Shown here piece by piece: positions 5,834 to 45,561 of a stretch of 50,651 nucleotides of DNA. Each line of letters starts with the position of its first letter. The first letter of the stretch is position 1. The translations under genes were made by a program, and so were the position numbers. The stretch spans positions 1 to 50,651 of the forward strand of contig JALDAH010000001.1 in the NCBI GenBank assembly GCA_022729275.1. Reading direction: 5' to 3'. This stretch comes from Candidatus Nanoanaerosalina archaeon (GTDB lineage Archaea; Nanohalarchaeota; Nanosalinia; Nanosalinales; Nanoanaerosalinaceae). The notes under the pieces were generated by a model, which saw only the letters and a list, made by a program, of their open reading frames with translations, did no database searches and was not told where the DNA came from.

Positions 5834-7093
5834 CTACTGTAAGAACTCTATCTCAGGTTTTTCTATCTCTGTTGTACAGACACCATCATCACAGATACCC
5901 ATACACTCGTCATCATCATCACAACCTGTGTTCGGAGGCTGTACAAATTTTACTGTATCCATGTATCGGATATTTGAATTTCCTATGATATCTATAGCCT
6001 GAACATATAGATTGACTTCCTCATATTCAGATGAAGTGTAATCATACTTTATGGTATCTCCGTTCTCAAGGCCGCTTTCACTGTATATCTCGTTATTACA
6101 CTGGTTGTCCTTACAGAACTTAACATCTCTCAGTGGATAAAGAACAGAGTTATCTGAGAAATCTGCTTCGAAACCGTTCTCATTATAATTAGGTCCATCC
6201 ATCCGGGGATAAATATCCTGACCTATCTCCATCTTAAATTCTACGGATTCACCTGTAACAAAAGTGTCATCCGAAACACATTCTCCGGTATAACAATCTA
6301 TACGTGGGTAATAAGAGTGGTCTGTTATATTAAGGTATATGTCCAGTTTTGAATGTTCATTTGAATCTCCGAAAAGATGTGAGTTAACAGTCGAGTAATC
6401 ATTTGCGTGTCTATTAGTTGCAAATGAGATAAGTCTGAAACAGGTATCCTCATTCAGACAATCATTTTCGAACTCAGAACCGGAAAGATATTCTTCTTTC
6501 CCTGTCCTCATATCATAATGTGCTGCATCTCCGGTTGAAGTGTTGTATCTAAGAACCTCCGATATCTCAAAAGGGGTCTTATCAATATCTTCCACCGCTT
6601 CAGGCACAAATCCCATGCAAACAGATCTGTCAGTACCATAATCTCCGGGTGTACCAGCATGACCTCCATATGCTCCATCTTCAAAGTTTCTGTAATCTTC
6701 AGAGATGGATAACACATTTCTAGTTCTCTCATGACAACCTACATCGTTATCCTGGTAATAATCAACGTGGAAATAACTATTTACAATTCTTGTGTAAAAC
6801 TCATCAACTCCGTGTTCGTCAATACCCTTTACATCTGCTCCATCGAAGAAAGAATCATCCAGACAGACAGCTCTGTCTCTTGCAAGTGACTTATCATCCA
6901 TATTCTTGATGTGAGATCCGTACTCATCATAATCATCTGTATAGGATGTTAAAAGAAAAACTTTTGTCTCATCATCACCACAGCTACCATCATCATTAAC
7001 AGTCTGAATACCTATTATAATACTTGCTCCTACTATAAAAACAAGTAAGAACACCAGAAAATGTCTGTTCCGTACAATTATTTTTTCCATCAC
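5834..7093 (-). CDS. Secreted or anchored Cys-rich acidic hypothetical protein
   Basis: N-terminal TM/signal (FLVFLLVFIVGASIIIGI), many Cys including the C-terminal CDDDDECMGICDDGVC, and a 4-nt overlap with the upstream ORF. Confidence 0.55.
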   Translation of the reverse strand: MMEKIIVRNRHFLVFLLVFIVGASIIIGIQTVNDDGSCGDDETKVFLLTSYTDDYDEYGSHIKNMDDKSLARDRAVCLDDSFFDGADVKGIDEHGVDEFYTRIVNSYFHVDYYQDNDVGCHERTRNVLSISEDYRNFEDGAYGGHAGTPGDYGTDRSVCMGFVPEAVEDIDKTPFEISEVLRYNTSTGDAAHYDMRTGKEEYLSGSEFENDCLNEDTCFRLISFATNRHANDYSTVNSHLFGDSNEHSKLDIYLNITDHSYYPRIDCYTGECVSDDTFVTGESVEFKMEIGQDIYPRMDGPNYNENGFEADFSDNSVLYPLRDVKFCKDNQCNNEIYSESGLENGDTIKYDYTSSEYEEVNLYVQAIDIIGNSNIRYMDTVKFVQPPNTGCDDDDECMGICDDGVCTTEIEKPEIEFLQ

Positions 7094-7560: not shown

Positions 7561-7658
7561 CGGACCCGGAGGGATTTGAACCCTCGACCTACAGCTTTCT
7601 CCTACAATAAAAAAATTATTAGGAGGCTGTCGCTCTATCCGGGCTGAGCTACGGGCCC
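7561..7658 (-). tRNA. tRNA-Arg (anticodon CCU) with a 23-nt intron at the canonical 37/38 position (intron about 7597-7619)
   Basis: Reverse complement reads GGGCCCG-TA-GCTCAGCCCGGATAGAGC-G-ACAGC-CTCCTA[intron ATAATTTTTTTATTGTAGGAGAA]A-GCTGT-AGGTC-GAGGG-TTCAAAT-CCCTC-CGGGTCC-G. The intron contains TAGGAG, complementary to the anticodon region, as expected for a bulge-helix-bulge substrate. Confidence 0.85.
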
Positions 7659-11179: not shown

Positions 11180-12042
11180 TTTCTTATGAAATGGAAAAGG
11201 TATTCCTGAGCATACCCCACTTTTTTTTCCCCAAAATAATCTCTAAAATTATCTCCTAGCCTGAAATAATTTTTGTCATATTTTTCAGGATAGTACCTCT
11301 TAACGGCTTTTTTGATCCATGTATCAACCGGAAAGGCTTCAAGTTTTCCAACACCAAATAGAAGGACGCAGTCAGCGACCTTGTTTCCAACCCCGAAAAG
11401 CTTTTTAATCTCGTTATGAGCTTCCCTGTACTCCATTTCAACAAGGTTTTTCGGCTCCACTATTCCTTTTAAAATCTGTTCTACTGTTTTAACAATGTAT
11501 TTAGCTCGGTAACCTATACCTAAATCTCTTAAATCCTCTTCAGAGGCTTTTGAAAGCTGTTTAACATTTGGAAACTGTAAGAAAGTTTCTCCACCAACCT
11601 TTATTTTATCTCCAAAACGCTCTGCAATACCATTGAACATCTTCTTTATTCTTGGAATTCTCATCTGTGGACTGCAGAGATATGATATTAGGCAAGGGAA
11701 AAAATCGTCTTTTATCAGTCTCATACCTGTGTATTTATCCAGAGCTCTGTCAAGTATATCGTCCTTTCCCCTCAAATCTTCCTTGATATCAGTTATTGAA
11801 TCATATAGATGAAATCTTTCTTCGATCTGTTTTTCCATACCTCCTGTAGCCTTGTAGAATAACCTGTCATCTTTTTGCCACAGTATCAGAACATTACCCT
11901 TGGATGTGGTGAAATACTTGTCGCCTTCTCCACTGTAAAGTGTACCTTCTGAGAGTCTGTACCATGAAAATGTTTGGCCAACCTCCAGTGTCGTCTCAAG
12001 ATCCAGTTCGTCTCTTGAAATATTCAAGTAACCTTCCTTCAT
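11161..12042 (-). CDS. ogg: 8-oxoguanine DNA glycosylase/AP lyase (Ogg1-type, HhH-GPD)
   Basis: OGG_N-like TLEVGQTFSW; HhH-GPD with catalytic Lys and Asp in LFGVGNKVADCVLLFG...FPVDTWI; GIGYRAKYI motif. Confidence 0.85.
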   Translation of the reverse strand: MKEGYLNISRDELDLETTLEVGQTFSWYRLSEGTLYSGEGDKYFTTSKGNVLILWQKDDRLFYKATGGMEKQIEERFHLYDSITDIKEDLRGKDDILDRALDKYTGMRLIKDDFFPCLISYLCSPQMRIPRIKKMFNGIAERFGDKIKVGGETFLQFPNVKQLSKASEEDLRDLGIGYRAKYIVKTVEQILKGIVEPKNLVEMEYREAHNEIKKLFGVGNKVADCVLLFGVGKLEAFPVDTWIKKAVKRYYPEKYDKNYFRLGDNFRDYFGEKKVGYAQEYLFHFIRNQESSS

Positions 12043-12078
12043 CAAGAAGTTTTTTGGTTCACAACACTTTTTAAATTG

Positions 12079-12258
12079 TCACTGATCGCCGCTTTTGAAC
12101 CTGAAAAAATCATCTCCCTTATCACTGTCAGGTTTCTTAGAAGCTTTTTTTGCCTTTCTCGGGTCGTATGTCCTTCCACATTTGTGGCACTTCACTTTTT
12201 TCAAAGCATTTGATTTTTGTTTGAATCCGCATTCAGGACAAACATAGTACTTAGCCAT
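12079..12258 (-). CDS. Small basic zinc-ribbon protein (59 aa), missing from the ORF track
   Basis: Hand translation: MAKYYVCPECGFKQKSNALKKVKCHKCGRTYDPRKAKKASKKPDSDKGDDFFRFKSGDQ*. It has a CPEC-x13-CHKC ribbon, fills an otherwise empty 256-nt gap, and is one residue short of the track's apparent 60-aa cutoff. Confidence 0.5.
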   Translation of the reverse strand: MAKYYVCPECGFKQKSNALKKVKCHKCGRTYDPRKAKKASKKPDSDKGDDFFRFKSGDQ

Positions 12259-24548: not shown

Positions 24549-26837
24549 TTACGGTCTATGCTGCTCCATGTAAATTTCTTCTGAAACCGATATTCCTGAT
24601 CCCTCTTTTGAAACCCTGTAAAGATAAGATGTAACTGAATCCTCTAGATCTTTGTCATGGGTGATCAAAAGAAGCTGGTCCACTATAATCGATATATCCT
24701 CCCTAAGAGTATCCGACAAATCTGAAACAGTTCTTTCGTCAAGATTATGGGTTGGTTCATCCAACATCAAAACATTAAATCTTTTTCCAAGTACGGCTGA
24801 AAGCGCTAATCTCATGGTCAAAGCGGCTGAATGTCTTTCTCCACCCGAAACTTCACCCTCTACAGGTACCTTATTACCTCTTGAATCACAGATTTTCAGT
24901 ATATAATCCTCCTCTACACTGATCTCGATATCAGAATAATAATCATAGGGATATATATTGGCCCATATATCCTGCATAACGTCATTTAGATTCTCTATGA
25001 ATTGTTTCCTCAGTTGTTCCTGAGCTTCTTTAAGCTTTTTCCTAAAAGACACGAAAAAATCCTCTAAAATCCTGTATCTCTCAATATCCTCCTCAATATC
25101 ATCTATCAAAGACTTCCTCTCTTTCAGTTCTTCAACACGTTTTTTATACTGTTCAAGGACTTCTTTCTTTGATTCTTTCTCCTTTTCAACTACTCTTATA
25201 TCAGATTTAACATCATTGAATTTTTTCTCGATATTTTTGAATCGATCAATATCAAAATCGTTTTCCTCCCTACTTTTCTCAATAAATGTTAGGGCTTTCC
25301 TTCTCTCTTCTAACTTCTTCTTGAATTTGAAGACATCCTTCAATTTTTTCATCCTTTCCTTTTCCTCTTTCAGCTTTTCTCTGTTCAAATCCTTTAGCTT
25401 CTCTTCAAGTTCTTCTATTTTCCCTGATAAAACTTTCTTCTCAGATCTTTCTTCCCTTAGTTTTTTCTTTTTATCACTGATTTTTTCCTCAACATCCCCA
25501 AGTTTCAAGATATCGGCCCTCCTATTATTCAATTTCTGAAGTTCCTCAGATATCTCTTCAATCTTCTCTCCTATACTTTCTTTTCTTGATTCTAAATTTT
25601 TCTTCTCCTCTCTGAAGGATATGATTAACTCTTCTCTGTGTTCATCATCCAGATCTCTGTTGCAGGTCGGGCATTTTCCCTCAGCATCTGATAGTTGCTC
25701 GATGGAATCATCCAGGTTTTGTTTTTTACTTTTTAATCCGGATATCTTATCTTTATTATCATCCAACTTTTTCTTTTTCTTTTCTATAGATTTCTCAACG
25801 TCTTCCAGTTTTTCAAACTCTTCTTTATCTTCATTTAACTCTTCAATCTTTTTTTCAATTTTTCCAATGTTTTTATCCTTATATCCTACTTTGTTCTTCT
25901 TTTTGGAAAGTCTCTCCTTTACTTTTTCTGCCTTTGATATTTTTTCATCGATCTCAGAGATTTTTTTATCTATTTTATCTTTATCTTCAATATTTATCTC
26001 TTCCAATTCCTCCTCTAATTCGTCCAGATTCTCCTTTAAAGAATTAATCTCGCCTTTCACTTCCCCTATTTTTCTTTCCAATTTTTCGTGTTTCTTTTTG
26101 GCTTTTTTTTCTGATTCATACTTTTCATTTAAAACTTGCTTTTTTTCCGAGAGTTTTTTCCTCCTATCCTCAAGTTCTTCTATCTTATCCTCAATTTTTC
26201 CTCTTTTTTCCATAATTTTCTCAAAATCTTTCTCCTCAAAGCTCTCTTTGTTGTCCTTCAAATCACTCTCCTTGTATTCACGCTTGTTTCTCACAGAATT
26301 TTTAAGTTTCACAAGAGATTTGCGTGCTTTTTCAAATCTGTCCAACCCGAGAAGTTTATCTATTTTTTCTTTCCTTTCACCTGGTCGCATATCAAGAAAA
26401 AAATCCAGGGAGTTCTGTTCAGAAAAAACAATGGTGGTGAAAAGATCGAAGTTAAGACCTATAATTTCCTCGATTTTTTCAGATACCTCAGTTGCCTGAG
26501 GACCGGCAATCACATCACCTTCCTTTCTAAGAATCGATTTTGTGGTCCCTCTACCTCTCTTTATTATTCTCTCAACAGAATATGTATCCTCTATCTCAAA
26601 AACTATTTTTACTTTGGCCGAATCCTCTTGATTTGGAGATCTTCTAATTACATCATCTATATTTATCCTTCTCTCCTTTATAGATGGTAAAGTTCCGTAA
26701 AGACCAAAAACTATGGATTCAAGTACCGATGATTTTCCGGATCCCATCTCTCCCACCAGGGCATTTACCCCTCCATCAAAAACTAATTCTTCCTCCCTGT
26801 ATGATTTCCAGTTCTCCAGACCTACTTTTTTTATCAT
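24549..26837 (-). CDS. rad50: Rad50 DNA double-strand-break repair ATPase (short coiled-coil form)
   Basis: Walker A GEMGSGKSS, long K/E coiled coil with zinc hook CPTC, signature SGGERHSAAL, Walker B LMLDEPTHNLD. Starts 4 nt after mre11. Confidence 0.9.
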   Translation of the reverse strand: MIKKVGLENWKSYREEELVFDGGVNALVGEMGSGKSSVLESIVFGLYGTLPSIKERRINIDDVIRRSPNQEDSAKVKIVFEIEDTYSVERIIKRGRGTTKSILRKEGDVIAGPQATEVSEKIEEIIGLNFDLFTTIVFSEQNSLDFFLDMRPGERKEKIDKLLGLDRFEKARKSLVKLKNSVRNKREYKESDLKDNKESFEEKDFEKIMEKRGKIEDKIEELEDRRKKLSEKKQVLNEKYESEKKAKKKHEKLERKIGEVKGEINSLKENLDELEEELEEINIEDKDKIDKKISEIDEKISKAEKVKERLSKKKNKVGYKDKNIGKIEKKIEELNEDKEEFEKLEDVEKSIEKKKKKLDDNKDKISGLKSKKQNLDDSIEQLSDAEGKCPTCNRDLDDEHREELIISFREEKKNLESRKESIGEKIEEISEELQKLNNRRADILKLGDVEEKISDKKKKLREERSEKKVLSGKIEELEEKLKDLNREKLKEEKERMKKLKDVFKFKKKLEERRKALTFIEKSREENDFDIDRFKNIEKKFNDVKSDIRVVEKEKESKKEVLEQYKKRVEELKERKSLIDDIEEDIERYRILEDFFVSFRKKLKEAQEQLRKQFIENLNDVMQDIWANIYPYDYYSDIEISVEEDYILKICDSRGNKVPVEGEVSGGERHSAALTMRLALSAVLGKRFNVLMLDEPTHNLDERTVSDLSDTLREDISIIVDQLLLITHDKDLEDSVTSYLYRVSKEGSGISVSEEIYMEQHRP

Positions 26838-26841
26838 TTAT

Positions 26842-28089
26842 TCAACCTCCAAAATAATCAAGTACGGTCTTTCCATCCTTCTTAACATCTTTCTCCTCGT
26901 TTTTTTCTTCATTTATTTTCTCCATGAAATCTTTAAGTTCTTCCAGGTTTTTTTCCTCAAACCTTTCAAGTACGGATTTTGTTTCTTCCTCACAGAGCTT
27001 CTCAAAAATTTCTCTTATACCATTAAAACTAAAATCCCTTGAAATATATCTGAAACCTAATTCATTAACCTTCTTTCCTGTATCAATACTCTTATCTGTA
27101 TCTTGAATCCCTTCTGTGTTATCACCTATCTTGATTATTGCGGAATCTATTTTTTCTCTTATCTCTTTATTACTAAAGGATGCTTCTGTTTTTCCCTTTA
27201 AAACAACCCTAACGAGAGGTTTCTTGTCTTTTTCTAATGATATATCTTCCACCTGTTCTATTAACTCATCCACTATCTCTCTGCCTTCCATTTCTGAGAC
27301 ATCAATTTCAAGGTGAAAAACGTCTCTAGGGGATTTTAATGGTTCAAAGCTGATATCTCTTTTTTCAGTATCTATAAAGATTATGCCCTTCTCTTCTTCA
27401 GCCTCTTTTTTCCTTACCTGTGTGGTTATGGTAGAACCTGGAAAAACGAGAGGCATCTCTCTGCTTTCAAAGTCAAGGTTTTTCCAGTGTATGTGCCCAT
27501 CTATAATGTAATCGAAACCATCTGGGATATCCGAAAGTGAAAGCCCCTTGTTTATTTTATCTGTATATACAAAATTCTCGATCGACTGGTGAAGCATCAG
27601 CACATTAATACCTTTTCTTGGTGTTGGACTCCAGTTTTTCAGTATCTCTGAAGCGTATCTTTCTGGTACACCTGACATACCAAAAATGTTAACCCTTTCA
27701 CCTTCTTTTTCAAGGGTGACATAATCGTTGTGAAGATGTATCAAAACTCCTGCCTCTTCCAACAGCTCTATAGGATTAACGTATTCGTTGCTCCTCCTCT
27801 CATGTGTGCCGTGTATTGCTATTACAGGTGTTTTATTATTTTTCCATCTATAATTTTTGATTCTTGCCGCATCATCTCTATCATCACCTAATAATTTGAA
27901 AATTTTGAATGCTTCCGAAAAAACTTCCTGGTTAGGTGTCTTAGAATCGAAAATATCACCTGGTAGGAGAACAGCATCTGCTTTTTTAGCCTTCTTAAAG
28001 GCTTCTCTTGCATTTTGGAAGCTGTCTTCATTTCTCTCAGAGTTCCACTTAAAACCAAAATGCGTGTCACTTACAACAGCTAATTTCAT
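26842..28089 (-). CDS. mre11: Mre11 nuclease
   Basis: Phosphoesterase motifs VVSDTHFG, LLPGDIFD, AIHGTHER, LMLHQS, DGHIHW. Confidence 0.9.
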   Translation of the reverse strand: MKLAVVSDTHFGFKWNSERNEDSFQNAREAFKKAKKADAVLLPGDIFDSKTPNQEVFSEAFKIFKLLGDDRDDAARIKNYRWKNNKTPVIAIHGTHERRSNEYVNPIELLEEAGVLIHLHNDYVTLEKEGERVNIFGMSGVPERYASEILKNWSPTPRKGINVLMLHQSIENFVYTDKINKGLSLSDIPDGFDYIIDGHIHWKNLDFESREMPLVFPGSTITTQVRKKEAEEEKGIIFIDTEKRDISFEPLKSPRDVFHLEIDVSEMEGREIVDELIEQVEDISLEKDKKPLVRVVLKGKTEASFSNKEIREKIDSAIIKIGDNTEGIQDTDKSIDTGKKVNELGFRYISRDFSFNGIREIFEKLCEEETKSVLERFEEKNLEELKDFMEKINEEKNEEKDVKKDGKTVLDYFGG

Positions 28090-28158: not shown

Positions 28159-28749
28159 TTAATCCATCATCCCGATTATTTCTCCCTTTTCAAGGTCTAT
28201 AGGATCTATTCCTGCAAGACTTCCCATGAACATTAGACCTGATCTCTTCGATACATACACATTAAATTCCTGGGTCTCTTGTTCATCCTCCAACAACATC
28301 GTCACAACAAATATATCCTCATAGGTCTCCTGATCTATGGAGATCACTGTAATATTTATGTCGTCATCTACATCTCCAATCTGCTGCACGATGTAATCCG
28401 TAACCATCTCATCGATTTCATTAAGAGTGAATTCTTCGGTCTCGACCATTTCAGCTGGATACATCACTATAAATGTAAACGCAAAACCTATAAGCATCCC
28501 TAATAAGATGTTAACGAAGGGTCGCTCCCAAGTGCTTATAGCTTCTTCATCAGAAACAGGTTCTTCTTCGAGTTCAACTTCTCTATCTTCGATTTTGTTT
28601 TGTATCCATTCCTTCAAAGTTTTTCTGTTTTTCCCTTCTTTTTCAGCTTCAAGTAACTCTTCCAGATCTATTTTTTCATCTTTTCCAACTTCTTGTTTTA
28701 CTTCAGAAATGGTTCCATCAAGGATTTCACCATAATTTTCATCTGTCAT
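28159..28749 (-). CDS. Acidic single-pass membrane protein (unknown function)
   Basis: Very acidic cytosolic N-terminus, one TM (FVNILLGMLIGFAFTFIVMY), and a small C-terminal ectodomain. Confidence 0.5.
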   Translation of the reverse strand: MTDENYGEILDGTISEVKQEVGKDEKIDLEELLEAEKEGKNRKTLKEWIQNKIEDREVELEEEPVSDEEAISTWERPFVNILLGMLIGFAFTFIVMYPAEMVETEEFTLNEIDEMVTDYIVQQIGDVDDDINITVISIDQETYEDIFVVTMLLEDEQETQEFNVYVSKRSGLMFMGSLAGIDPIDLEKGEIIGMMD

Positions 28750-36907: not shown

Positions 36908-37014
36908 CCCTCCTTAGCTCAGTCTGGCAGAGCGTCCGCCTGTAGTTCCAGCCGGGTGCTGACCAATGGAAGCCAGTCAGCGGAATGCCCCCCGTTCAAA
37001 TCGGGGAGGAGGGA
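36908..37014 (+). tRNA. tRNA-Tyr (anticodon GUA) with a 33-nt intron at 37/38 (about 36946-36978)
   Basis: CCCTCCT-TA-GCTCAGTCTGGCAGAGC-G-TCCGC-CTGTAG[TTCCAGCCGGGTGCTGACCAATGGAAGCCAGTC]A-GCGGA-ATGCC-CCCCG-TTCAAAT-CGGGG-AGGAGGG-A. The C1-G72 pair is the archaeal/eukaryal tRNA-Tyr identity element. Confidence 0.85.
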
Positions 37015-37075: not shown

Positions 37076-37927
37076 ATGGAAATCAAAATCGGTGCTCATG
37101 TATCAATTTCAGGAGGTTTCATAAAAGCTCTTGACAGAGAGGAAAAACTGGGTGGTAACTGTGGACAGGTATTTGTCCATTCTCCCAGGGTATGGAAGTT
37201 CGGCAAACTCTCAGAAAAAGAAGCCAGAAATTTTAGGGAGGAGTACAATAAGAGAGGTTGGGGTCCTATCCTAGTACACTCCAACTACCTGATAAACCTT
37301 GCAACACCTAAACCAGATCTCTTTAAGAGATCCGTGGAAACATTGAAGGAGGAATTGAGAAGGGCTAAAATGCTGGGTATGGAATATGTCGTGTTTCACC
37401 CAGGAAGCCATACAGGTTCTGGAGAAGAAAAAGGAATACAGAGCATAATTCAAGGCTTAAATATGGTCAAAGAAGTTATAGACGATAATACTAAGCTTCT
37501 TCTGGAGAACACTGCAGGGAAGGGAACTTCTCTTGGAAAAAACGTCGATCAACTGTCACAGATGTTTGAAAAATCTAAACTGACGTTCGATGAGGCAGGT
37601 GTATGTATTGATACTTGTCATGCTTTTTCCGCTGGTTACAATATCCATACCGAAAAAGGTCTTGATGATTTTGTAGAGGAATTCGATTCAAAGATTGGTT
37701 GGGATAACGTTAAAGCTATTCATCTGAATGATTCTAAGTATTCTCAGGGTTCTGAAAAGGATGAACACGCCCATATAGGAGAAGGAAAGATAGGTGAACA
37801 GGGTATGGAAAACATAGTGAACCATCCTAGGATCAAGGAAAAACCTTTGATACTTGAGACACCTGTGGATAAAGAAAAAGGTTACAGGGAAAACATCGAA
37901 AAAGTTGCAGATCTTATGAAGAATTAA
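37076..37927 (+). CDS. nfo: Endonuclease IV (AP endonuclease, TIM-barrel)
   Basis: IGAHVSISGG, HSNYLINLA, VFHPGSH, LLENTAG, CIDTCHAFSAGY, HLNDSK. The track ORF's 5' extension (36956-37075) overlaps tRNA-Tyr and is rejected. Confidence 0.9.
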   Translation: MEIKIGAHVSISGGFIKALDREEKLGGNCGQVFVHSPRVWKFGKLSEKEARNFREEYNKRGWGPILVHSNYLINLATPKPDLFKRSVETLKEELRRAKMLGMEYVVFHPGSHTGSGEEKGIQSIIQGLNMVKEVIDDNTKLLLENTAGKGTSLGKNVDQLSQMFEKSKLTFDEAGVCIDTCHAFSAGYNIHTEKGLDDFVEEFDSKIGWDNVKAIHLNDSKYSQGSEKDEHAHIGEGKIGEQGMENIVNHPRIKEKPLILETPVDKEKGYRENIEKVADLMKN

Positions 37928-38157
37928 TCAAAACTTATCTCCGTTATCTCTACACCTCTCTCCTTTGAAATTCTCTTCTTGAACTCTTTGATAGCTGAAT
38001 CATTTCCTTCAACATCCAGTAGGATAACACCTGTTTCTCCTCCTCTGTTAAAGCCTATCCTTGTTTTTATTAAACTTCCAAATCCTGTTAATACTTTTTG
38101 AAGTTTTTGAGCGTTTTTCCTTCTCTTAGAAAGCTTTAGTGCTATTATCTCCTCCAT
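37924..38157 (-). CDS. Small ACT/NikR-C-like protein (77 aa); possible iron-only-hydrogenase-system regulator (TM1266-like)
   Basis: Only the last 77 codons of track ORF 37924-38385 are taken (ATG at 38155-38157). MEEIIALKLS...GVILLDVEGNDSAIKEFKKRISKERGVEITEISFD has a beta-alpha-beta-beta-alpha-beta pattern. The family assignment rests on size, fold pattern and divergent position next to hydCBA, and was not verified. Confidence 0.4.
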   Translation of the reverse strand: MEEIIALKLSKRRKNAQKLQKVLTGFGSLIKTRIGFNRGGETGVILLDVEGNDSAIKEFKKRISKERGVEITEISFD

Positions 38158-38237
38158 GAAAATTATTTTGATTCGAACTGTAAAAAATATTACTGTATGA
38201 AAAAGTATTTTTAACAGACAGCCGAATTTATTCATGT

Positions 38238-38657
38238 ATGGAGTTGCCTGAAGAACCTCTACTAAATATTTTGAAGAAAGAGCAGGAGAGACACGGATAC
38301 CTATCCGATCATGTATTGAAACAGGTAAGTATCGAGATCGATGTTCCTCTTTCAAAACTATATGGCATAACTCAGTTCTACACAATGCTAAGAACTGAAC
38401 CTGTTGGAAAAAATGTCATAGAGATATGCATGTCGACTCCGTGTTTTCTAAACGAAAGCGACACTTTGAAGGATTACCTTGAGGAAAAACTCGGTATAAA
38501 AACAGGTGAAACCAGTGAAGATGGTGAATTTTCTCTTTTCAGGGTTTCTTGTATCGGTTGTTGTAACGAACCACCTGCAATGCTGGTGAACGATGAACCA
38601 TACACCAAACTGACAGAAGAAAGAATAGATTTTATAATAAAAGAGTTGAGAGACTGA
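38238..38657 (+). CDS. hydC: [FeFe]-hydrogenase gamma subunit, NuoE-like thioredoxin-fold 2Fe-2S protein
   Basis: Cys pattern C-x4-C-x35-C-x3-C (ICMSTPC...VSCIGCCNEPPAMLVN) as in NuoE/HydC. The stop overlaps the hydB ATG (TGATG). Confidence 0.8.
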   Translation: MELPEEPLLNILKKEQERHGYLSDHVLKQVSIEIDVPLSKLYGITQFYTMLRTEPVGKNVIEICMSTPCFLNESDTLKDYLEEKLGIKTGETSEDGEFSLFRVSCIGCCNEPPAMLVNDEPYTKLTEERIDFIIKELRD

Positions 38658-39772
38658 TGCAGATATTGAGAAAAACAAAGATGGAGGCTCTGAAACTACT
38701 TGGAAGTATGAAAAGAGAAGAAATGCTGGAGAGGATGGAGGAAAAAAGCCTTGTAGGTAGAGGTGGTGCGGGTTTTCCAACTGCTAAAAAATGGAGAATG
38801 GCTCTGGAACAAGAAGAAAACATATATCTTGTGGTCAATGCTGATGAAGGAGAACCAGGCACTTTCAAGGACAAGTTTATTCTTGAGAACAACCTTGATA
38901 CATTTATAGAAGGAGTTATGATGGCTTCAAAAATTTTGGATGTTGAAAAGACGTATATATACCTTAGGGGGGAATACGAATACCTGAGAGATGATATTGA
39001 GGAAAAAATAAAAGAACTTAACAATAAAACCCCCAGAAATTTCGATATAAATATGGTCAGAGGTGCTGGAGCATATGTATGCGGTGAAGAAACCTCTATA
39101 CTACAATCAATCATGGGCCACAGAGGTAATTCCATGAAAAAACCTCCATACCCCACACAGAAAGGACTCTGGGGTAAACCAACTGTTGTAAACAACGTTG
39201 AGACAATAACATGTGTACCTCAACTGCTCTTATACGATGACTGGAATCCGAATCTCAGGCTTTTCTCGCTTTCAGGAAATGTTTCTAATCCTGGACTTTT
39301 TGAAGCGCCGCTCGGAGTTAAAGTTTCAACCCTTATAGATCTTGCTAGACCAAAAAACAAATTAAAAGCAATGTCTTTAGGTAATTTTGGAGGTATAATG
39401 CCTATAGAAAAAGATATGAAAATAACACCTGAACTGATAAGCGATGAAAACTGTTTCCACGGAACTTACTCCCTTATATGGATCGATGAGACCAACAACA
39501 TCGTGGATATATGCAAAAACATCTCCGAGTTCTATACTTATGAGTCATGTGGAAAATGCACACCATGCAGAGAAGGTTCAAAAGAAATTCTGGATCTTCT
39601 TGGAAAAATATGTAATGGAAAAGGAACTAAAAAAGATATAGAGGAACTTGAAAAAACTGCAAGTCACGTCAACCAGACAAGCCTTTGTGGCCTCGGCAAA
39701 ACTGTTGGCAAACACGTTTTGACGGGTCTGGAACATTTCAAAAATGATTTTATTGAGAAGGTTGAACAATGA
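38657..39772 (+). CDS. hydB: [FeFe]-hydrogenase beta subunit, minimal NuoF-like NADH/FMN/4Fe-4S protein
   Basis: GRGGAGFPTAKKW (FMN), NADEGEPGTFKDKFILE (NADH), GAGAYVCGEETSILQSI, NNVETI, and the N3 cluster ESCGKCTPCREG...CGLG. At 371 aa it has no extra ferredoxin domains. Confidence 0.85.
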   Translation: MQILRKTKMEALKLLGSMKREEMLERMEEKSLVGRGGAGFPTAKKWRMALEQEENIYLVVNADEGEPGTFKDKFILENNLDTFIEGVMMASKILDVEKTYIYLRGEYEYLRDDIEEKIKELNNKTPRNFDINMVRGAGAYVCGEETSILQSIMGHRGNSMKKPPYPTQKGLWGKPTVVNNVETITCVPQLLLYDDWNPNLRLFSLSGNVSNPGLFEAPLGVKVSTLIDLARPKNKLKAMSLGNFGGIMPIEKDMKITPELISDENCFHGTYSLIWIDETNNIVDICKNISEFYTYESCGKCTPCREGSKEILDLLGKICNGKGTKKDIEELEKTASHVNQTSLCGLGKTVGKHVLTGLEHFKNDFIEKVEQ

Positions 39773-41421
39773 ATATAGAACTTGACGGAAGAGAGATAGA
39801 AGTAGATGAAGAAAACACACTTCTTGAGATATGCAGGCAAGAAGGGAAAGAAATACCTACAAAGTGTTATCTGAAAGAAATCGGATCCGATTCAAGGTGC
39901 AGAGTTTGCCTCGTGGAAGTTGATGGAAGACTCGTTACTTCCTGTTCAACCTATCCAAAAAAAGGTTCAAAAATAAAGACCGACACTGAAAGAGTTTTGG
40001 AGGCCCGTGAAAAAAATCTTGAGCTAATGAAACAAAAAAAGGATTCATCTGAAGCTTACAAGCTTTTTAAAGAGGTTGGTTTGGGTAACAACAGGTTCGA
40101 CAAGGAAGACCACAAGCTGGAGATAATGGGGCAGTCACTTCTGAGAGAGATGGAGGAATGTGTCAACTGTGGCAGATGTGTAAAGGTTTGTGACCATATT
40201 CAAGGTGTTCATGCAATCGACTTTGCGGGTAGAGGCCACGAATCAAGGGTCACACCACACAGAGAAAAAAAGTTATCTGAAGTAGCGTGTATAAGGTGTG
40301 GGCAGTGCATCTTGAGATGTGAAGAAGATGCCCTGAAGGAAAAAAGCCACTTGAAAAAAGTAGAAGAAGCTCTCTCAGATAAAACAAAGTTCGTTGTTGC
40401 ACAAACAGCTCCTGCGGTAAGAGCCTCTCTGGGAGAATTATTTGCGATGGAACCAGGTACAAATGTGGAGGGAGAGATGGTCGCCGCATTGAGAAAAAAA
40501 GGATTTGACAGGGTTTTCGACACAGTATTCGGTGCTGATCTGACAATAGTGGAAGAAGCATCGGAGTTGATAGAAAGGATCAAAGGTGGTGGACCTTTCC
40601 CTATGATAACAAGTTGCTGTCCTGCATGGATAATTTACATGGAACATTTTCATCCTGAACTAAAGAAAAATGTATCAAGCTGTAAAAGCCCTCACATGAT
40701 GGTAGGGGCCCTGACAAAGACATTTTTTGCGGAAAAAATGGATAAAAACAAAGAAGATATTGTTGTTGTTTCCATAATGCCCTGTACATCAAAGAAATTC
40801 GAGGTATCAAGGACAGAAATGAAAGAGGATGTTGATTACGTGTTAACGACAAGAGAAACCGCAAAAATGTTCAAAAAAGAATCTATAGACCTCAATAATA
40901 TGGAAAAACAAGATTTTGATGATCCAATGGGAATATCCACAGGTGCAGGCAAGATCTTCGGTGCTACAGGCGGAGTGATGGAAGCAGCAATTAGAACAGC
41001 TAATGATAAACTTGATGGGGGACAAATCGATTTCAGGCTTGAAGAAGTCAGGGGAGAACACGGAATCAAAAGAGGAGAAGTAGATATAGATGGTCAAAAA
41101 GTAAGGTTCATTGTGGCCCATGGAGGTAAAAATATTGGGAAGACTATTGAGATGTTAGATGACGGAGATGAGGTACATTTCATAGAATTCATGGCTTGTC
41201 CAGGAGGATGTGTCTGTGGAGGAGGCCAGCCCAGATCAGAAAACAATCTTTTCCCAGAAAGAGCGGCCGCATTGTATATAAGCGATGAAAATTCTGATTT
41301 AAGGCTCTCACACAATAACCCTGCTGTAAAGAAGATCTACGATGATTTTCTGGATGAACCTCTTTCAGACAAATCGGAAAAGTTGCTTCACACCTTCTAC
41401 CTTGAAAGAGATGGTTTCTAG
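39769..41421 (+). CDS. hydA: [FeFe]-hydrogenase catalytic subunit (H-cluster domain, N-terminal 2Fe-2S and 2x[4Fe-4S])
   Basis: H-cluster motifs TSCCPAW, MPCTSKKFE and EFMACPGGCVCGGGQP; GATGGVMEAA; CVNCGRCVKVC and CIRCGQCILRC; N-terminal C-x10-C-x2-C-x11-C (CYLKEIGSDSRCRVCLVEVDGRLVTSC); C-terminal small-subunit-like tail. ATGA overlap with hydB. Confidence 0.9.
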   Translation: MNIELDGREIEVDEENTLLEICRQEGKEIPTKCYLKEIGSDSRCRVCLVEVDGRLVTSCSTYPKKGSKIKTDTERVLEAREKNLELMKQKKDSSEAYKLFKEVGLGNNRFDKEDHKLEIMGQSLLREMEECVNCGRCVKVCDHIQGVHAIDFAGRGHESRVTPHREKKLSEVACIRCGQCILRCEEDALKEKSHLKKVEEALSDKTKFVVAQTAPAVRASLGELFAMEPGTNVEGEMVAALRKKGFDRVFDTVFGADLTIVEEASELIERIKGGGPFPMITSCCPAWIIYMEHFHPELKKNVSSCKSPHMMVGALTKTFFAEKMDKNKEDIVVVSIMPCTSKKFEVSRTEMKEDVDYVLTTRETAKMFKKESIDLNNMEKQDFDDPMGISTGAGKIFGATGGVMEAAIRTANDKLDGGQIDFRLEEVRGEHGIKRGEVDIDGQKVRFIVAHGGKNIGKTIEMLDDGDEVHFIEFMACPGGCVCGGGQPRSENNLFPERAAALYISDENSDLRLSHNNPAVKKIYDDFLDEPLSDKSEKLLHTFYLERDGF

Positions 41422-42032
41422 TCTCTCAAAAGTCTTTCATATATATTTTCAAACCTGTTTTTTACAGTTTTAACTTTCTCAACTGCCTCTGAGTATTTTT
41501 TATCCGAAAATTTGTCTATTATGCAGCATATTCCTTCTTTTAGTTCATTAGATAATTCTTCCTCGATATCCATAACCTTCAAGTACTCATTAGCCATCCT
41601 CATCCTGGCACTAGAGAGACTGTATTCGCTAAATTTAGGGGTATTTTCCTCATCGGATAACTTCTTCAATGTCTCTTCAAAATAATTATCGACTTTTTCA
41701 AGGTATCCCTTTCTTCTTATCAGTTTTATAGAAGTCTTAGGTAACTCCACTCCAAGTTTCTCAGAATATTCCTTCGCTTTTTTAAGGTCATCCTCCATTC
41801 TGTACACGTTTCCGGCTAAAGCGAACTCCCTTGCATTCCTCATGTGAAAAGGTATGCCTCTCTCAAAAGCCCTATTCATTATCTCATTTCTTTCTCTTGA
41901 ATCCAAATCGGTTTTTTCAAGGTGATACATTGCTCCCTTGACCATTCCATGTTCTGCTTCGACCTTTGCATCGAATAAAGGACCTCCATTAATAATATCC
42001 TCCTCTTCGAAAAAGAATTTCTTGTAAAACAT
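41418..42032 (-). CDS. Hypothetical helical protein (204 aa)
   Basis: Clean ORF convergent with hydA, with a 4-nt overlap of the 3' ends. No motif recognised. Confidence 0.45.
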   Translation of the reverse strand: MFYKKFFFEEEDIINGGPLFDAKVEAEHGMVKGAMYHLEKTDLDSRERNEIMNRAFERGIPFHMRNAREFALAGNVYRMEDDLKKAKEYSEKLGVELPKTSIKLIRRKGYLEKVDNYFEETLKKLSDEENTPKFSEYSLSSARMRMANEYLKVMDIEEELSNELKEGICCIIDKFSDKKYSEAVEKVKTVKNRFENIYERLLRD

Positions 42033-42848: not shown

Positions 42849-43718
42849 ATGGATGAAATGAAAAATTATGCCACAGAAGTAACAGTTTTGCTCGAGAATG
42901 AAGAGAAGAGAACTGTTGATGAATACATTGAGACCCTTGAAAAGTTCAAGGATGCTACTGGTTACAGGGAGATAGAGTTCTCGGACCTTCCTGATATTAT
43001 TGGTGGAGTAACTATCCCATATATAGAGCCCTCAGAAACCGGTGTGGGAATTAGAGGTGGAGAAATCAAGATCAACGACAAGTTTCTTGAAATACCTGAA
43101 TCCGAACAGAACTACAGAGATTTTGTGGAAACACTTTTCCATGAAGCAGTTCACCTTGAGGATTTCAGGCTAGAATCGGAAAGCGATTACGGTTTCAACA
43201 GAAAAGAAAGGGAATACAAAACTATTCTTTCTGAAGGGCTTGCCTCAAAGATAGGTAAGAACGGTTACCATGATGCTGAAAGGTTCTACGACATGTTTTA
43301 TGATGAGGCTGAAGATTATTTCTACGATGAAATCTTGAATGAGAAGGGTTCAAACGTGGGAGAAATACTGGAGGATATCAGCGAGGACAAATACCTTGTA
43401 CATGTGGGCCTTAATTCTAAGGAGAATGTTTACGATTTTCAGATGCTGGACAAGGAGATCTTCGATAGTAACAAGGAGTTAGGGGAAGAAGATATATATG
43501 AAATACTTGATGATATATACCAAGAAGGGATAGATAGAGACAGGAGCTATTTGATAGATTTCCGGGATGAAGATGTTGATTCCGAGAAAATCGCAGAACA
43601 TTACCTGGAGACACATGAAAGAGTGGAGAGCAATATACTGGATTTCAAAGATGAAATGGATAAGAACGGTTACAGTTTTCCAAATAAATTACTTCCTTTT
43701 GCTGAACTCGAATATTAA
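42849..43718 (+). CDS. Very acidic hypothetical protein with an HExxH motif (possible zinc metallopeptidase-like)
   Basis: LFHEAVHLED is the only recognisable motif. ATG at 42849 preferred to GTG at 42840. Confidence 0.45.
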   Translation: MDEMKNYATEVTVLLENEEKRTVDEYIETLEKFKDATGYREIEFSDLPDIIGGVTIPYIEPSETGVGIRGGEIKINDKFLEIPESEQNYRDFVETLFHEAVHLEDFRLESESDYGFNRKEREYKTILSEGLASKIGKNGYHDAERFYDMFYDEAEDYFYDEILNEKGSNVGEILEDISEDKYLVHVGLNSKENVYDFQMLDKEIFDSNKELGEEDIYEILDDIYQEGIDRDRSYLIDFRDEDVDSEKIAEHYLETHERVESNILDFKDEMDKNGYSFPNKLLPFAELEY

Positions 43719-45444: not shown

Positions 45445-45561
45445 TGCTGACGGCCAGAGCGAGGGGGCAACACCCGTACCCATCTCGAACACGGAAGTAA
45501 AGTCCCTCAGCGATCAGGTGAGTACTGCCTAATCGGCGGAAAAATCCGGACGCTGTCAGCC
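45445..45561 (+). rRNA. rrf: 5S ribosomal RNA, stand-alone
   Basis: Helix I GCTGACGGC/GCTGTCAGC (9 bp). Conserved core CCACACCCGTACCCATCTCGAACACGGAAGTAAAG...CAGCGATCAGGTGAGTACTG. Followed by CTATTTTTAC. The ends are +/- 2 nt. Confidence 0.85.

Follow-up and report, generated by a model that had tools for sequence, protein, structure and literature searches.

Introduction

Trimeric [FeFe]-hydrogenases of the HydABC kind are already known from Archaea. Greening 2024 (Cell, PMC11216029) found group A3 HydABC, counted in 44 genomes, to be the most widespread archaeal type, in at least six DPANN phyla, and reported biochemistry on other archaeal [FeFe] enzymes. Huang 2021 (Nat Commun, PMC8421398) described a trimeric enzyme of Woesearchaeota, monophyletic with those of Micr-, Aenigm-, and Nanohaloarchaeota, whose NuoF-like gene encodes only 4Fe-4S, flavin mononucleotide (FMN), and SLBB domains, and termed it bifurcating. 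Here we analyse a hydC-hydB-hydA module on a 50,651-nucleotide (nt) stretch of archaeal DNA (contig JALDAH010000001.1 of assembly GCA_022729275.1), called the window below; all coordinates refer to the whole window. We argue that the encoded enzyme probably does not bifurcate electrons.

The published label of the DPANN clade, "group A3, electron-bifurcating" (PMC11216029; PMC8421398), refers to a well-described bacterial design. The bifurcating HydABC of Thermotoga maritima, Thermoanaerobacter kivui, and Acetobacterium woodii (PDB 7p5h, 8a6t, and 7q4v) have a NuoE/NuoF core, a HydB of about 600 amino acids (aa) with extra Fe-S domains, and a HydA with a His-ligated cluster. Losey 2020 (PMC7311640) distinguished these enzymes from non-bifurcating ones by residues near the NADH site (A/E and M versus T/S and K/S/A), by F versus Y near the FMN, by a GGPSG motif in the SLBB domain, and by the extra Fe-S domains. 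Clusters B2-B5 are missing from non-bifurcating homologues, including that of Syntrophomonas wolfei (Schut 2022, PMC9304861). The C-terminal domain of HydB is found in all characterised bifurcating enzymes and in none of the non-bifurcating ones, and the His-ligated cluster of HydA joins protomers and, in CpI of Clostridium pasteurianum, is thought to lead to ferredoxin (Furlan 2022, PMC9499530). A hydrogenase with a minimal NuoE/NuoF pair can also yield H2 from NADH without ferredoxin, as in the hydrogenosomal Hyd-NuoE-NuoF of Caecomyces churrovis (mBio 2026, PMC13556243).

As judged from its domain content and residues, the hydCBA module of the window most likely encodes a functional, vertically inherited, ferredoxin-independent, non-bifurcating, and reversible NADH:H+ oxidoreductase of the S. 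wolfei Hyd1ABC type. The archaeal host and the missing maturases are already published for such enzymes; what is new here is the mechanistic reading.

Organization of the hydCBA Operon

The module consists of three overlapping genes on the forward strand. The gene hydC (38238-38657) encodes a NuoE-like thioredoxin-fold [2Fe-2S] subunit of 139 aa (2Fe-2S_thioredx, PF01257, 1.6e-43), hydB (38657-39772) a minimal NuoF-like NADH/FMN subunit of 371 aa with a single [4Fe-4S] (Pfam Complex1_51K, SLBB, and NADH_4Fe-4S), and hydA (39769-41421) the catalytic [FeFe]-hydrogenase of 550 aa (Pfam Fer2_4, two Fer4, Fe_hyd_lg_C, and Fe_hyd_SSU). The first-pass annotation of this DNA had described an intact, translationally coupled hydC-hydB-hydA; the three open reading frames (ORFs) and their Pfam domains bear this out, and the overlaps TGATG (38655-38659) and ATGA (39769-39772) agree with the ORF coordinates. 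The best PDB relatives of HydC are NfnC (9n5u_C) and the T. kivui HydC (8a6t_C), with which its Cx4C...CxxCC ligands align.

An 80-bp divergent intergenic spacer (38158-38237) lies between hydC and an oppositely oriented gene for a 77-aa protein. It contains the element AAAAGTATTTTTAAC at 38201-38215, the only exact occurrence in the window, which is kept in 5/5 related loci while the remainder of the spacer is variable. Since it lies about 28 nt ahead of the ATG, it is likely a B recognition element/TATA box (BRE/TATA) for a leaderless hydCBA transcript.

HydB Lacks the Domains and Residues Tied to Bifurcation

The HydB of the window ends 5 residues past the NADH_4Fe-4S (N3-type cluster) domain and aligns to residues 141-526 of the 597-aa 7t2r_B and to residues 39-413 of the Aquifex NuoF. 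It has no N-terminal thioredoxin-like [2Fe-2S] domain, the alignment beginning at about residue 140-175 of bacterial HydB, and no C-terminal Zn/[2Fe-2S] hinge and 2x[4Fe-4S] domain (B3/B4). Past that point the bacterial proteins continue with a KKCPAGVC hinge, then two CxxCxxCxxxCP motifs. The residues ADEGEPGTFKD, PPYP, and LGNFGG place T/K where bifurcating enzymes have A/M and Y where they have F, and there is no GGPSG. Among the features of the bifurcating family (Bfu), the window therefore shows the joint encoding of hydA, hydB, and hydC and has neither the HydB domains nor the residues of Losey 2020. What HydB does have is the non-bifurcating set: FMN and NADH sites, a single N3-type [4Fe-4S], T/K, Y, and no GGPSG.

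The three subunits were extracted from 87 loci, and two more (L088 and L089) were added later, giving 89. The bacterial comparison set stood among the matches listed from a scan of genome contigs and included at least 55 loci with a full-length HydB; these matches were mostly bacterial HydABC loci, and the closest relatives of the window were not among them. In 55 such loci among these listed matches, HydB measured 587-1044 aa (mostly 595-662), ADEGDPGAFMD was present in 54 (the one variant reading AYMN), GGPSG was found in all 55, the N-terminal [2Fe-2S] was present, and HydA had the His-ligated site. In contrast, the non-bifurcating pattern appeared in each of the nine archaeal loci whose HydB is complete (this lineage, two Woesearchaeota, and one Aenigmarchaeota), with a HydB of 370-372 aa, no GGPSG, and no His-ligated site in HydA; ADEGEPGTFKD occurred in eight of the nine, the Aenigmarchaeota locus L085 having NANEGEPGTLKD. 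HydB of L088 and L089 measures 370 and 371 aa, respectively.

Two bacterial loci among the matches listed, L024 and L028, also have a short HydB of the non-bifurcating type. They come from a Melioribacteraceae metagenome-assembled genome (MAG) and an unclassified bacterial MAG, and their HydB subunits (402 and 546 aa) carry ADEGEPGTFKD and lack GGPSG, whereas their HydA keeps the His-ligated cluster that the window HydA lacks. Because these loci pair a short HydB with a His-ligated HydA, the loss of the HydB domains and the loss of the HydA cluster are separable events.

The Catalytic Subunit HydA

The sequence of HydA is that of a group A [FeFe]-hydrogenase catalytic subunit, predicted to bind an H-cluster and to turn over H2. 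It scored 479 bits against TIGR02512 ("[FeFe] hydrogenase, group A"; cut-off 406), 1.1e-93 against Fe_hyd_lg_C (PF02906), and 1e-19 against Fe_hyd_SSU (PF02256). Group A H-cluster motifs take the form TSCCPxW (L1), MPCxxKxxE (L2), and ExMxCxxGCxxGGGQP (L3). The window HydA has ITSCCPAW (T281-W287, nt 40609-40629), MPCTSKKFE (M337-E345, nt 40777-40803), and EFMACPGGCVCGGGQP (E473-P488, nt 41185-41232). Translation and arithmetic from 39769 place all three exactly where the first-pass annotation had read them, and the Fe_hyd_SSU match confirms the small-subunit-like C-terminal tail that it had noted.

The domain order is an N-terminal [2Fe-2S], two [4Fe-4S], the H-domain, and the small-subunit-like tail. 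In alignments of 15 and of 50 homologues, the ligands of the [2Fe-2S] (C33/C44/C47/C59), of the two [4Fe-4S] (C131/134/137/141 and C174/177/180/184), and of the H-cluster (C284/C339/C477/C481) were invariant, as were the proton relay residues C283, E263, E266, R270, and S303. Among the 50 homologues M337, K342, M475, and E345 were also invariant, and F344 was nearly so. By motif position, we take C283, E263, S303, E266, and R270 to be the equivalents of C299, E279, S319, E282, and R286 in CpI. The relay Cys and the other relay residues are lost in sensory and Nar1-like relatives. A sensory (HydS-like, group C) hydrogenase was considered and rejected, as the protein has no PAS or extra C-terminal domain and retains the relay Cys.

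What HydA does not retain is the His-ligated [4Fe-4S] site, which is replaced by a Cys-free linker at about residues 74-124; in the PDB alignment to 8a6t_A, "H..DC..C.....C" is replaced by "KQKKDSSEAYKLF". The motif of the His-ligated cluster was found in 0/120 of the closest HydA homologues. An AlphaFold2 (AF2) model of HydA (pLDDT 82) superposed on the T. kivui HydA1 (8a6t_A) and on CpI with TM-scores of 0.83-0.84.

Relationship to Known Hydrogenases

The first-pass annotation had called the module bacterial-type, with a Thermotoga-like arrangement, and had stressed the novelty of an archaeal [FeFe]-hydrogenase. Neither view was upheld. The nearest relatives outside the lineage, where a source names them, are mostly DPANN enzymes with the same minimal HydB, the T. 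maritima features are missing, HydABC in at least six DPANN phyla is published (PMC11216029), and Nanohaloarchaeota HydA has been placed in the DPANN clade (PMC8421398). In the HydA classification and phylogeny, which the annotation had proposed as a check, HydA lies above the TIGR02512 cut-off and groups with the DPANN sequences, apart from bacterial HydA, at a split with 99% support in a rough tree.

Outside the halophilic subclade of HydA, the nearest relatives are hundreds of proteins of about 555 aa with 50-55% identity; among the best 120 matches (about 555 aa), those with a named source come mostly from Woese-, Pace-, Micr-, and Nanoarchaeota. In a rough, distance-based neighbour-joining tree the halophilic subclade had 100% bootstrap support, and the split from bacterial enzymes with a His-ligated cluster had 99%. 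The basal position of the halophilic subclade may be a compositional artefact. On these sequence comparisons, the module is best described as a halophile-adapted member of the already known archaeal HydABC clade. It shares with the DPANN "group A3" enzymes (PMC11216029; PMC8421398) the hydC-hydB-hydA cluster, a HydA of about 550-557 aa that lacks the His-ligated cluster, and a NuoF-like HydB of about 370 aa; the general absence of maturases is also a feature of that clade (PMC11216029). It differs in forming a separate halophilic subclade with an isoelectric point (pI) of about 5 versus about 8.4 and with zero Cys left in the lost-cluster linker. The papers on that clade call the enzyme bifurcating, but its domain content argues otherwise.

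With the S. wolfei type, as described in the literature, the window enzyme shares a beta subunit without extra Fe-S domains, T/K, Y, no GGPSG, and a separate gamma subunit. The top NCBIfam model for HydA is NF040763 ("NADH-dependent [FeFe] hydrogenase, group A6"), which it matches at 679.9 bits, under the curated cut-off of 765; it further differs from that type in being archaeal and halophile-adapted and in having no His-ligated cluster, which the non-bifurcating-type bacterial loci L024 and L028 retain. The bifurcating bacterial enzymes are alike in subunit families, gene set, and NuoE/NuoF core, with a HydA identity of 43-44% to T. kivui and A. woodii and of 37-38% to T. maritima (TM about 0.82-0.83), but the additional HydB domains and the His-ligated HydA cluster of the T. 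maritima type are missing in the window. The C. churrovis enzyme has the same functional design of a hydrogenase with a minimal NuoE/NuoF; it differs in its unrelated evolutionary origin, its NuoF being mitochondrial, in having its genes outside an operon, and in that maturases were supplied in that work (PMC13556243). The monomeric, M3-type, group A1 CpI shares the H-domain, the two [4Fe-4S], the N-terminal [2Fe-2S], and the small-subunit-like tail (TM 0.84), but keeps the His-ligated cluster, thought to receive electrons from ferredoxin, and has no NuoE/F partners.

Inheritance of the Module

The gene order ArgRS-SepF-nfo-(TM1266-like)-hydC-hydB-hydA, where ArgRS is arginyl-tRNA synthetase, is common to five lineages, represented by four ENA metagenome assemblies and the NCBI genome GCA_022729255.1 (HydA identity 63-100%). 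HydA of the window is 85, 76, 69, and 63% identical to those of the related contigs. A contig from a separate Logan assembly runs from the 3' part of hydB through hydA into the 3' end of a 204-aa ORF (41418-42032, reverse strand). This ORF is convergent with hydA, and the two share 4 nt at the hydA stop. It had no Pfam or NCBIfam match. A homologue is present in L003/L004, there is none at that position in L005/L006 and L088, and a 200-aa gene in L089 corresponds to it in size and position only; the ORF is probably outside the hydrogenase module.

No break in GC, GC3, codon usage, or tetranucleotide composition was seen at the module, the tetranucleotide z-scores being -0.1 to -0.6. With the relative of 85% HydA identity as reference, the dS of hydC, hydB, and hydA was 0.93-1.12, and that of seven of nine flanking genes 0.78-1.28, SepF (0.23) and elongation factor 2 (EF-2; 0.62) being lower. 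The dN/dS ratios of hydC (0.054), hydB (0.067), and hydA (0.092) resemble those of ArgRS, nfo, and glutamate dehydrogenase (GDH), and the hyd genes are under purifying selection. HydA of the halophilic subclade has a pI of 4.6-5.4 and 18-21% D+E, versus a median pI of 8.4 and 12.9% D+E in 115 other close homologues; HydA has thus been remodelled to suit a proteome of the acidic, salt-in kind, and this acid shift matches the host proteome. The module is vertically inherited, with no recent import: composition, dS, and synteny rule out a recent transfer from bacteria. The same data answer the concern, raised in the first-pass annotation together with a k-mer check, that the contig might be chimeric.

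Maturases and Assembly of the H-Cluster

The six-frame survey of the window used a minimum ORF size of 110 aa and gave 62 ORFs, of which about 50 are likely genes and the others antisense or overlapping. None of these roughly 50 likely genes carried a Radical_SAM or HydF-type domain, and neither the 50-kb window nor the flanks of related loci, covered to +/-10 kb, yielded HydE, HydF, or HydG. The domain searches thus agree with the earlier statement that hydE, hydF, and hydG are missing from the 50 kb, though not with the surprise attached to it, since this is the published norm: among 130 archaeal genomes with [FeFe]-hydrogenases, the complete HydEFG set occurs in only five (Greening 2024, PMC11216029). 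The same study proposed an alternative maturation route and obtained an active enzyme encoded by a maturase-less archaeal genome. Moreover, 50 kb out of a genome of about 0.8 Mb says little on the absence of maturases.

Radical-SAM genes were seen near the module in two relatives. In the 69% relative, one such gene (about 500 aa; L005 20749-21650 and L006 20128-21029, both reverse strand) is located some 9 kb downstream of hydA, a position beyond the end of the window's contig. It was considered as a HydE/HydG candidate and rejected, being a B12-binding, HpnJ/PhpK-like, methyltransferase-like protein. The other (L007 4193-5878, forward strand, Woesearchaeota B3_Woes) is an Elp3-like radical-SAM/acetyltransferase about 600 bp upstream of hydC, with one 180-aa gene between; this hyd operon sits among ribosomal-protein genes, and the proximity is probably coincidental.

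The TM1266-Like Neighbour

The 77-aa gene (37924-38157, reverse strand) is divergent from hydC and adjoins it in all five lineage members. Its product matched the models NF052672 (CPF_0552; 5.4e-17), TIGR03959 (TM1266, "iron-only hydrogenase system putative regulator"; 5.7e-05), and PF21699 (2e-4). All three matches were below the model cut-offs (61.3 versus 85 bits for NF052672, 22.8 versus 60.8 for TIGR03959). The best PDB match of its AF2 model, which is of moderate confidence (pLDDT 70), was TM1266 (2nzc; TM 0.86, rmsd 1.7 A). A PDB sequence search gave no match, a word-indexed sequence search returned near-identical relatives only, and an exhaustive HMMER search recovered 34 distant relatives, of which 34/34 matched CPF_0552 and 29/34 TM1266. 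The ACT-like ORF in a TM1266-type position, noticed in the first reading, is thus confirmed.

The protein is like TM1266 and CPF_0552 in its beta-alpha-beta-beta-alpha-beta ACT/NikR-C-like fold, in its place beside hydrogenase genes, and in its weak match to both hidden Markov models. It has a domain of the ligand-binding type without a DNA-binding domain, and its gene has a dN/dS of 0.053. We know of no established function for either family; the bacterial TM1266 family is said to accompany maturase genes. None of the examined loci of Woese- and Aenigmarchaeota showed a divergent TM1266-like gene. In L088, the most divergent halophilic relative, a second TM1266-like paralogue (11762-11995, reverse strand; 1.9e-09) stands just downstream of hydA, and in L023 (Geosporobacter ferrireducens) a weak TM1266-like match (11982-12242, forward strand; 6.7e-05) has the same position. 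Because of these two cases, the link between the TM1266-like protein and hydA recurs beyond the lineage.

Proposed Mechanism and Alternative Explanations

HydC, HydB, and HydA would form one complex, in which electrons would pass from NADH to FMN, the HydB [4Fe-4S], the HydA [2Fe-2S], the two HydA [4Fe-4S], and the H-cluster, where H2 would be released; the HydC [2Fe-2S] would stand off this path, like N1a in complex I. The enzyme has 5 accessory Fe-S clusters versus about 10 in T. maritima, and no part of it seems suited to ferredoxin binding. With no ferredoxin-binding domain and neither bifurcation-specific nor His-ligated clusters, it is therefore expected to be a non-bifurcating NADH:H+ oxidoreductase. 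The host would be a fermentative symbiont without a respiratory chain, disposing of NADH from glycolysis and amino acids as H2. The NADH-recycling H2 outlet proposed in the first reading thus remains a likely role. The NAD(P)H-linked neighbours in the window (GDH, a ROK sugar kinase, triose-phosphate isomerase, two phosphoglucomutases, and an NAD(P)HX dehydratase) fit a fermentative cell but are no proof of the direction of the enzyme.

Under standard conditions NADH + H+ = NAD+ + H2 is an endergonic reaction, and H2 release would be downhill only while neighbours hold H2 very low. By a Nernst estimate, the balance at NADH/NAD+ = 1 lies at about 65 Pa H2 at pH 7; each further pH unit lowers it ten-fold, so that about 2 Pa would apply at an assumed cytoplasmic pH of 8.5. 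This estimate is consistent with the limit of <60 Pa given by Losey 2020 (PMC7311640). With the balance near 65 Pa or lower, venting would be restricted to the presence of H2-scavenging partners, or the enzyme may run in reverse.

The published label amounts to a different explanation, an electron-bifurcating/confurcating HydABC of the T. maritima type that makes H2 only by the joint oxidation of NADH and reduced ferredoxin. HydDB defines group A3 by the hydABC gene set, Greening 2024 and Huang 2021 used the label (PMC11216029; PMC8421398), and the closest solved HydA structures are bifurcating enzymes (8a6t_A, 1e-148; 7q4v_A). We nevertheless regard it as quite unlikely here, as the window HydB is without the N-terminal [2Fe-2S] and the Zn hinge and also without the C-terminal 2x[4Fe-4S] domain, the last of these being common to all characterised bifurcating enzymes and missing from non-bifurcating ones. 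It has T/K for A/M and no GGPSG, and is paired with a HydA lacking the cluster that joins protomers or accepts electrons from ferredoxin; no ferredoxin or pyruvate:ferredoxin oxidoreductase gene was found in the 50-kb window. Alternatively, the same enzyme might work mainly in the uptake direction in vivo, oxidising sediment H2 to NADH as an NAD+-reducing hydrogenase. The reaction is reversible in the HydAB of Syntrophus aciditrophicus, an alkaline cytoplasm would move the equilibrium about ten-fold per pH unit toward H2 oxidation, and the inferred habitat is an anoxic soda-lake sediment. Against this, Nanohaloarchaeota are described as fermentative, without a respiratory chain to use the extra NADH, the catabolic genes of the window produce NAD(P)H, and group A [FeFe] enzymes of fermenters usually evolve H2; we consider uptake as the main role unlikely.

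Two further explanations concern whether there is an active enzyme at all. HydA could be made but never receive its [2Fe] subcluster for want of HydEFG, serving instead in Fe-S or NADH-linked redox reactions, like Nar1/NARF. Maturases were indeed not found in the 50 kb, HydEFG is missing from most archaeal genomes with HydA, and the radical-SAM gene near the module in L005 is neither HydE nor HydG. However, the H-cluster ligands, the relay Cys, M337, K342, M475, and E263/E266/R270/S303 are invariant across lineages of 50-85% identity, while Nar1-type proteins have lost these residues. The dN/dS of hydA is only 0.09, and an enzyme from an archaeal genome without its own maturases was shown to be active (PMC11216029); such a fate is improbable. 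As for a chimeric assembly, or an archaeal contig to which contaminating bacterial DNA had been joined, the only argument in its favour is that [FeFe]-hydrogenases would be expected beforehand to be bacterial. An identical neighbourhood in four ENA assemblies and one NCBI MAG at 63-100% HydA identity, the Logan contig, the flat composition, a dS matching that of the flanks, and a protein as acid-shifted as the host proteome make it hardly credible.

Several points weigh against a non-bifurcating, NADH-driven enzyme. The sequence criteria for non-bifurcation derive from few characterised enzymes, and HydA is below the curated A6 cut-off. The Y/F position discriminates incompletely, PPYP being found in some long HydB subunits; it is the least reliable criterion in the locus table, the remaining ones splitting the loci without exception. 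NADH-driven H2 evolution is very tight in an alkaline cytoplasm, so the physiological direction is less certain. An active H-cluster is assumed, as the maturase search covers 50 kb only, and we know of no biochemistry for any DPANN HydABC. The placement of the host at the family level is an inference from the accession series, the GC content, and one marker protein.

Even with these points, a ferredoxin-independent NADH:H+ oxidoreductase remains the reading that we favour. More speculatively, and with considerable doubt, the lineage might build an active H-cluster without HydE/F/G and use the smallest known HydABC as a ferredoxin-independent NADH-to-H2 valve in a molar-salt cytoplasm. These symbionts might then be bound through H2, as a shared currency, to haloarchaea that consume it or to other partners in hypersaline sediment, and the TM1266-like protein might take part in maturation or control.

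Host Lineage and Other Features of the Window

The flanks of the module are archaeal, as the first-pass annotation had held on the basis of an intron-containing tRNA-Tyr, nfo, a cis-prenyltransferase, aCPSF1, and PAN. The tRNA-Tyr(GTA) (36908-37014, forward strand) has a 33-nt intron and C1-G72; it was missed by default ARAGORN and at the Rfam gathering threshold and was found by the ARAGORN intron option alone. An AP_endonuc_2/nfo-like gene, a cis-prenyltransferase gene, and aCPSF1 (871 bits, cut-off 580) were also found. The gene named PAN encodes an AAA ATPase that is present but only PAN-like (264 bits versus a cut-off of 500). Other archaeal genes in the flanks encode a proteasome subunit, a Hel308-type helicase with archaeal domain 4, Mre11/Rad50, SepF, EF-2, and an archaeal-type prolyl-tRNA synthetase. 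A second intron-containing tRNA, tRNA-Arg(CCT) (7561-7658, reverse strand), has a 23-nt intron.

EF-2 of the window shares 98% identity with its counterpart in the 85% relative, 76-78% with those of "Ca. Nanohaloarchaea"/QJJ-9, 70% with that of QJJ-7, and about 62% with those of Nanohalobium, Nanosalina, and Nanohalococcus. Sediments of soda-saline lakes were the source of the Ca. Nanoanaerosalinaceae and Nanohalalkaliarchaeaceae genomes of Zhao 2022 (PMC9765267), deposited as the series JALDAE-JALDAI, which takes in the related genome GCA_022729255.1 (JALDAG01). Their MAGs of Nanoanaerosalinaceae have 38-41% GC, like the window. Assignment of the host to the phylum Nanohaloarchaeota is well supported, and the host most likely belongs to Ca. 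Nanoanaerosalinaceae, with hypersaline sediment of a soda lake as its habitat.

A lone 5S rRNA gene (45446-45561, forward strand; 74 bits) lies between a function-unassigned gene and the GDH gene, with no 16S or 23S nearby. In composition, no part of the window deviates more than the Rad50 coiled-coil region within the Mre11-Rad50 pair (24549-28089, reverse strand), where GC is 0.32, GC skew is -0.47, and the tetranucleotide distance reaches its maximum; the long antisense ORFs 25621-26499 and 26136-26690 over it are probably spurious. Three very acidic proteins (5834-7093, reverse; 42849-43718, forward; 28159-28749, reverse), with a pI of 4.05-4.24 and 21-27% D+E, had no Pfam match, and the first two had no NCBIfam match either. 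The 289-aa acidic protein is kept beside the prenyltransferase in related genomes.

Implications

Within the literature searched, we found no discussion of a hydCBA enzyme in Nanoanaerosalinaceae and no statement that DPANN HydABC lack the parts for bifurcation; in the family description (Zhao 2022, PMC9765267) the word "hydrogen" is absent from the main text. The published archaeal hydrogenase clade now extends to an extreme-halophile lineage, Ca. Nanoanaerosalinaceae. As an acid-shifted and stripped-down enzyme, its HydABC would be a compact, salt-adapted candidate for enzymology and for studies of HydEFG-independent maturation. The analysis also offers a testable correction: the DPANN "group A3" enzymes, annotated as bifurcating, are without every part tied to bifurcation. 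If they are indeed NADH-only enzymes, the venting of reductant would be restricted to very low H2, which would make these organisms obligate partners of H2 consumers and would change how their metabolism and symbiosis are modelled.

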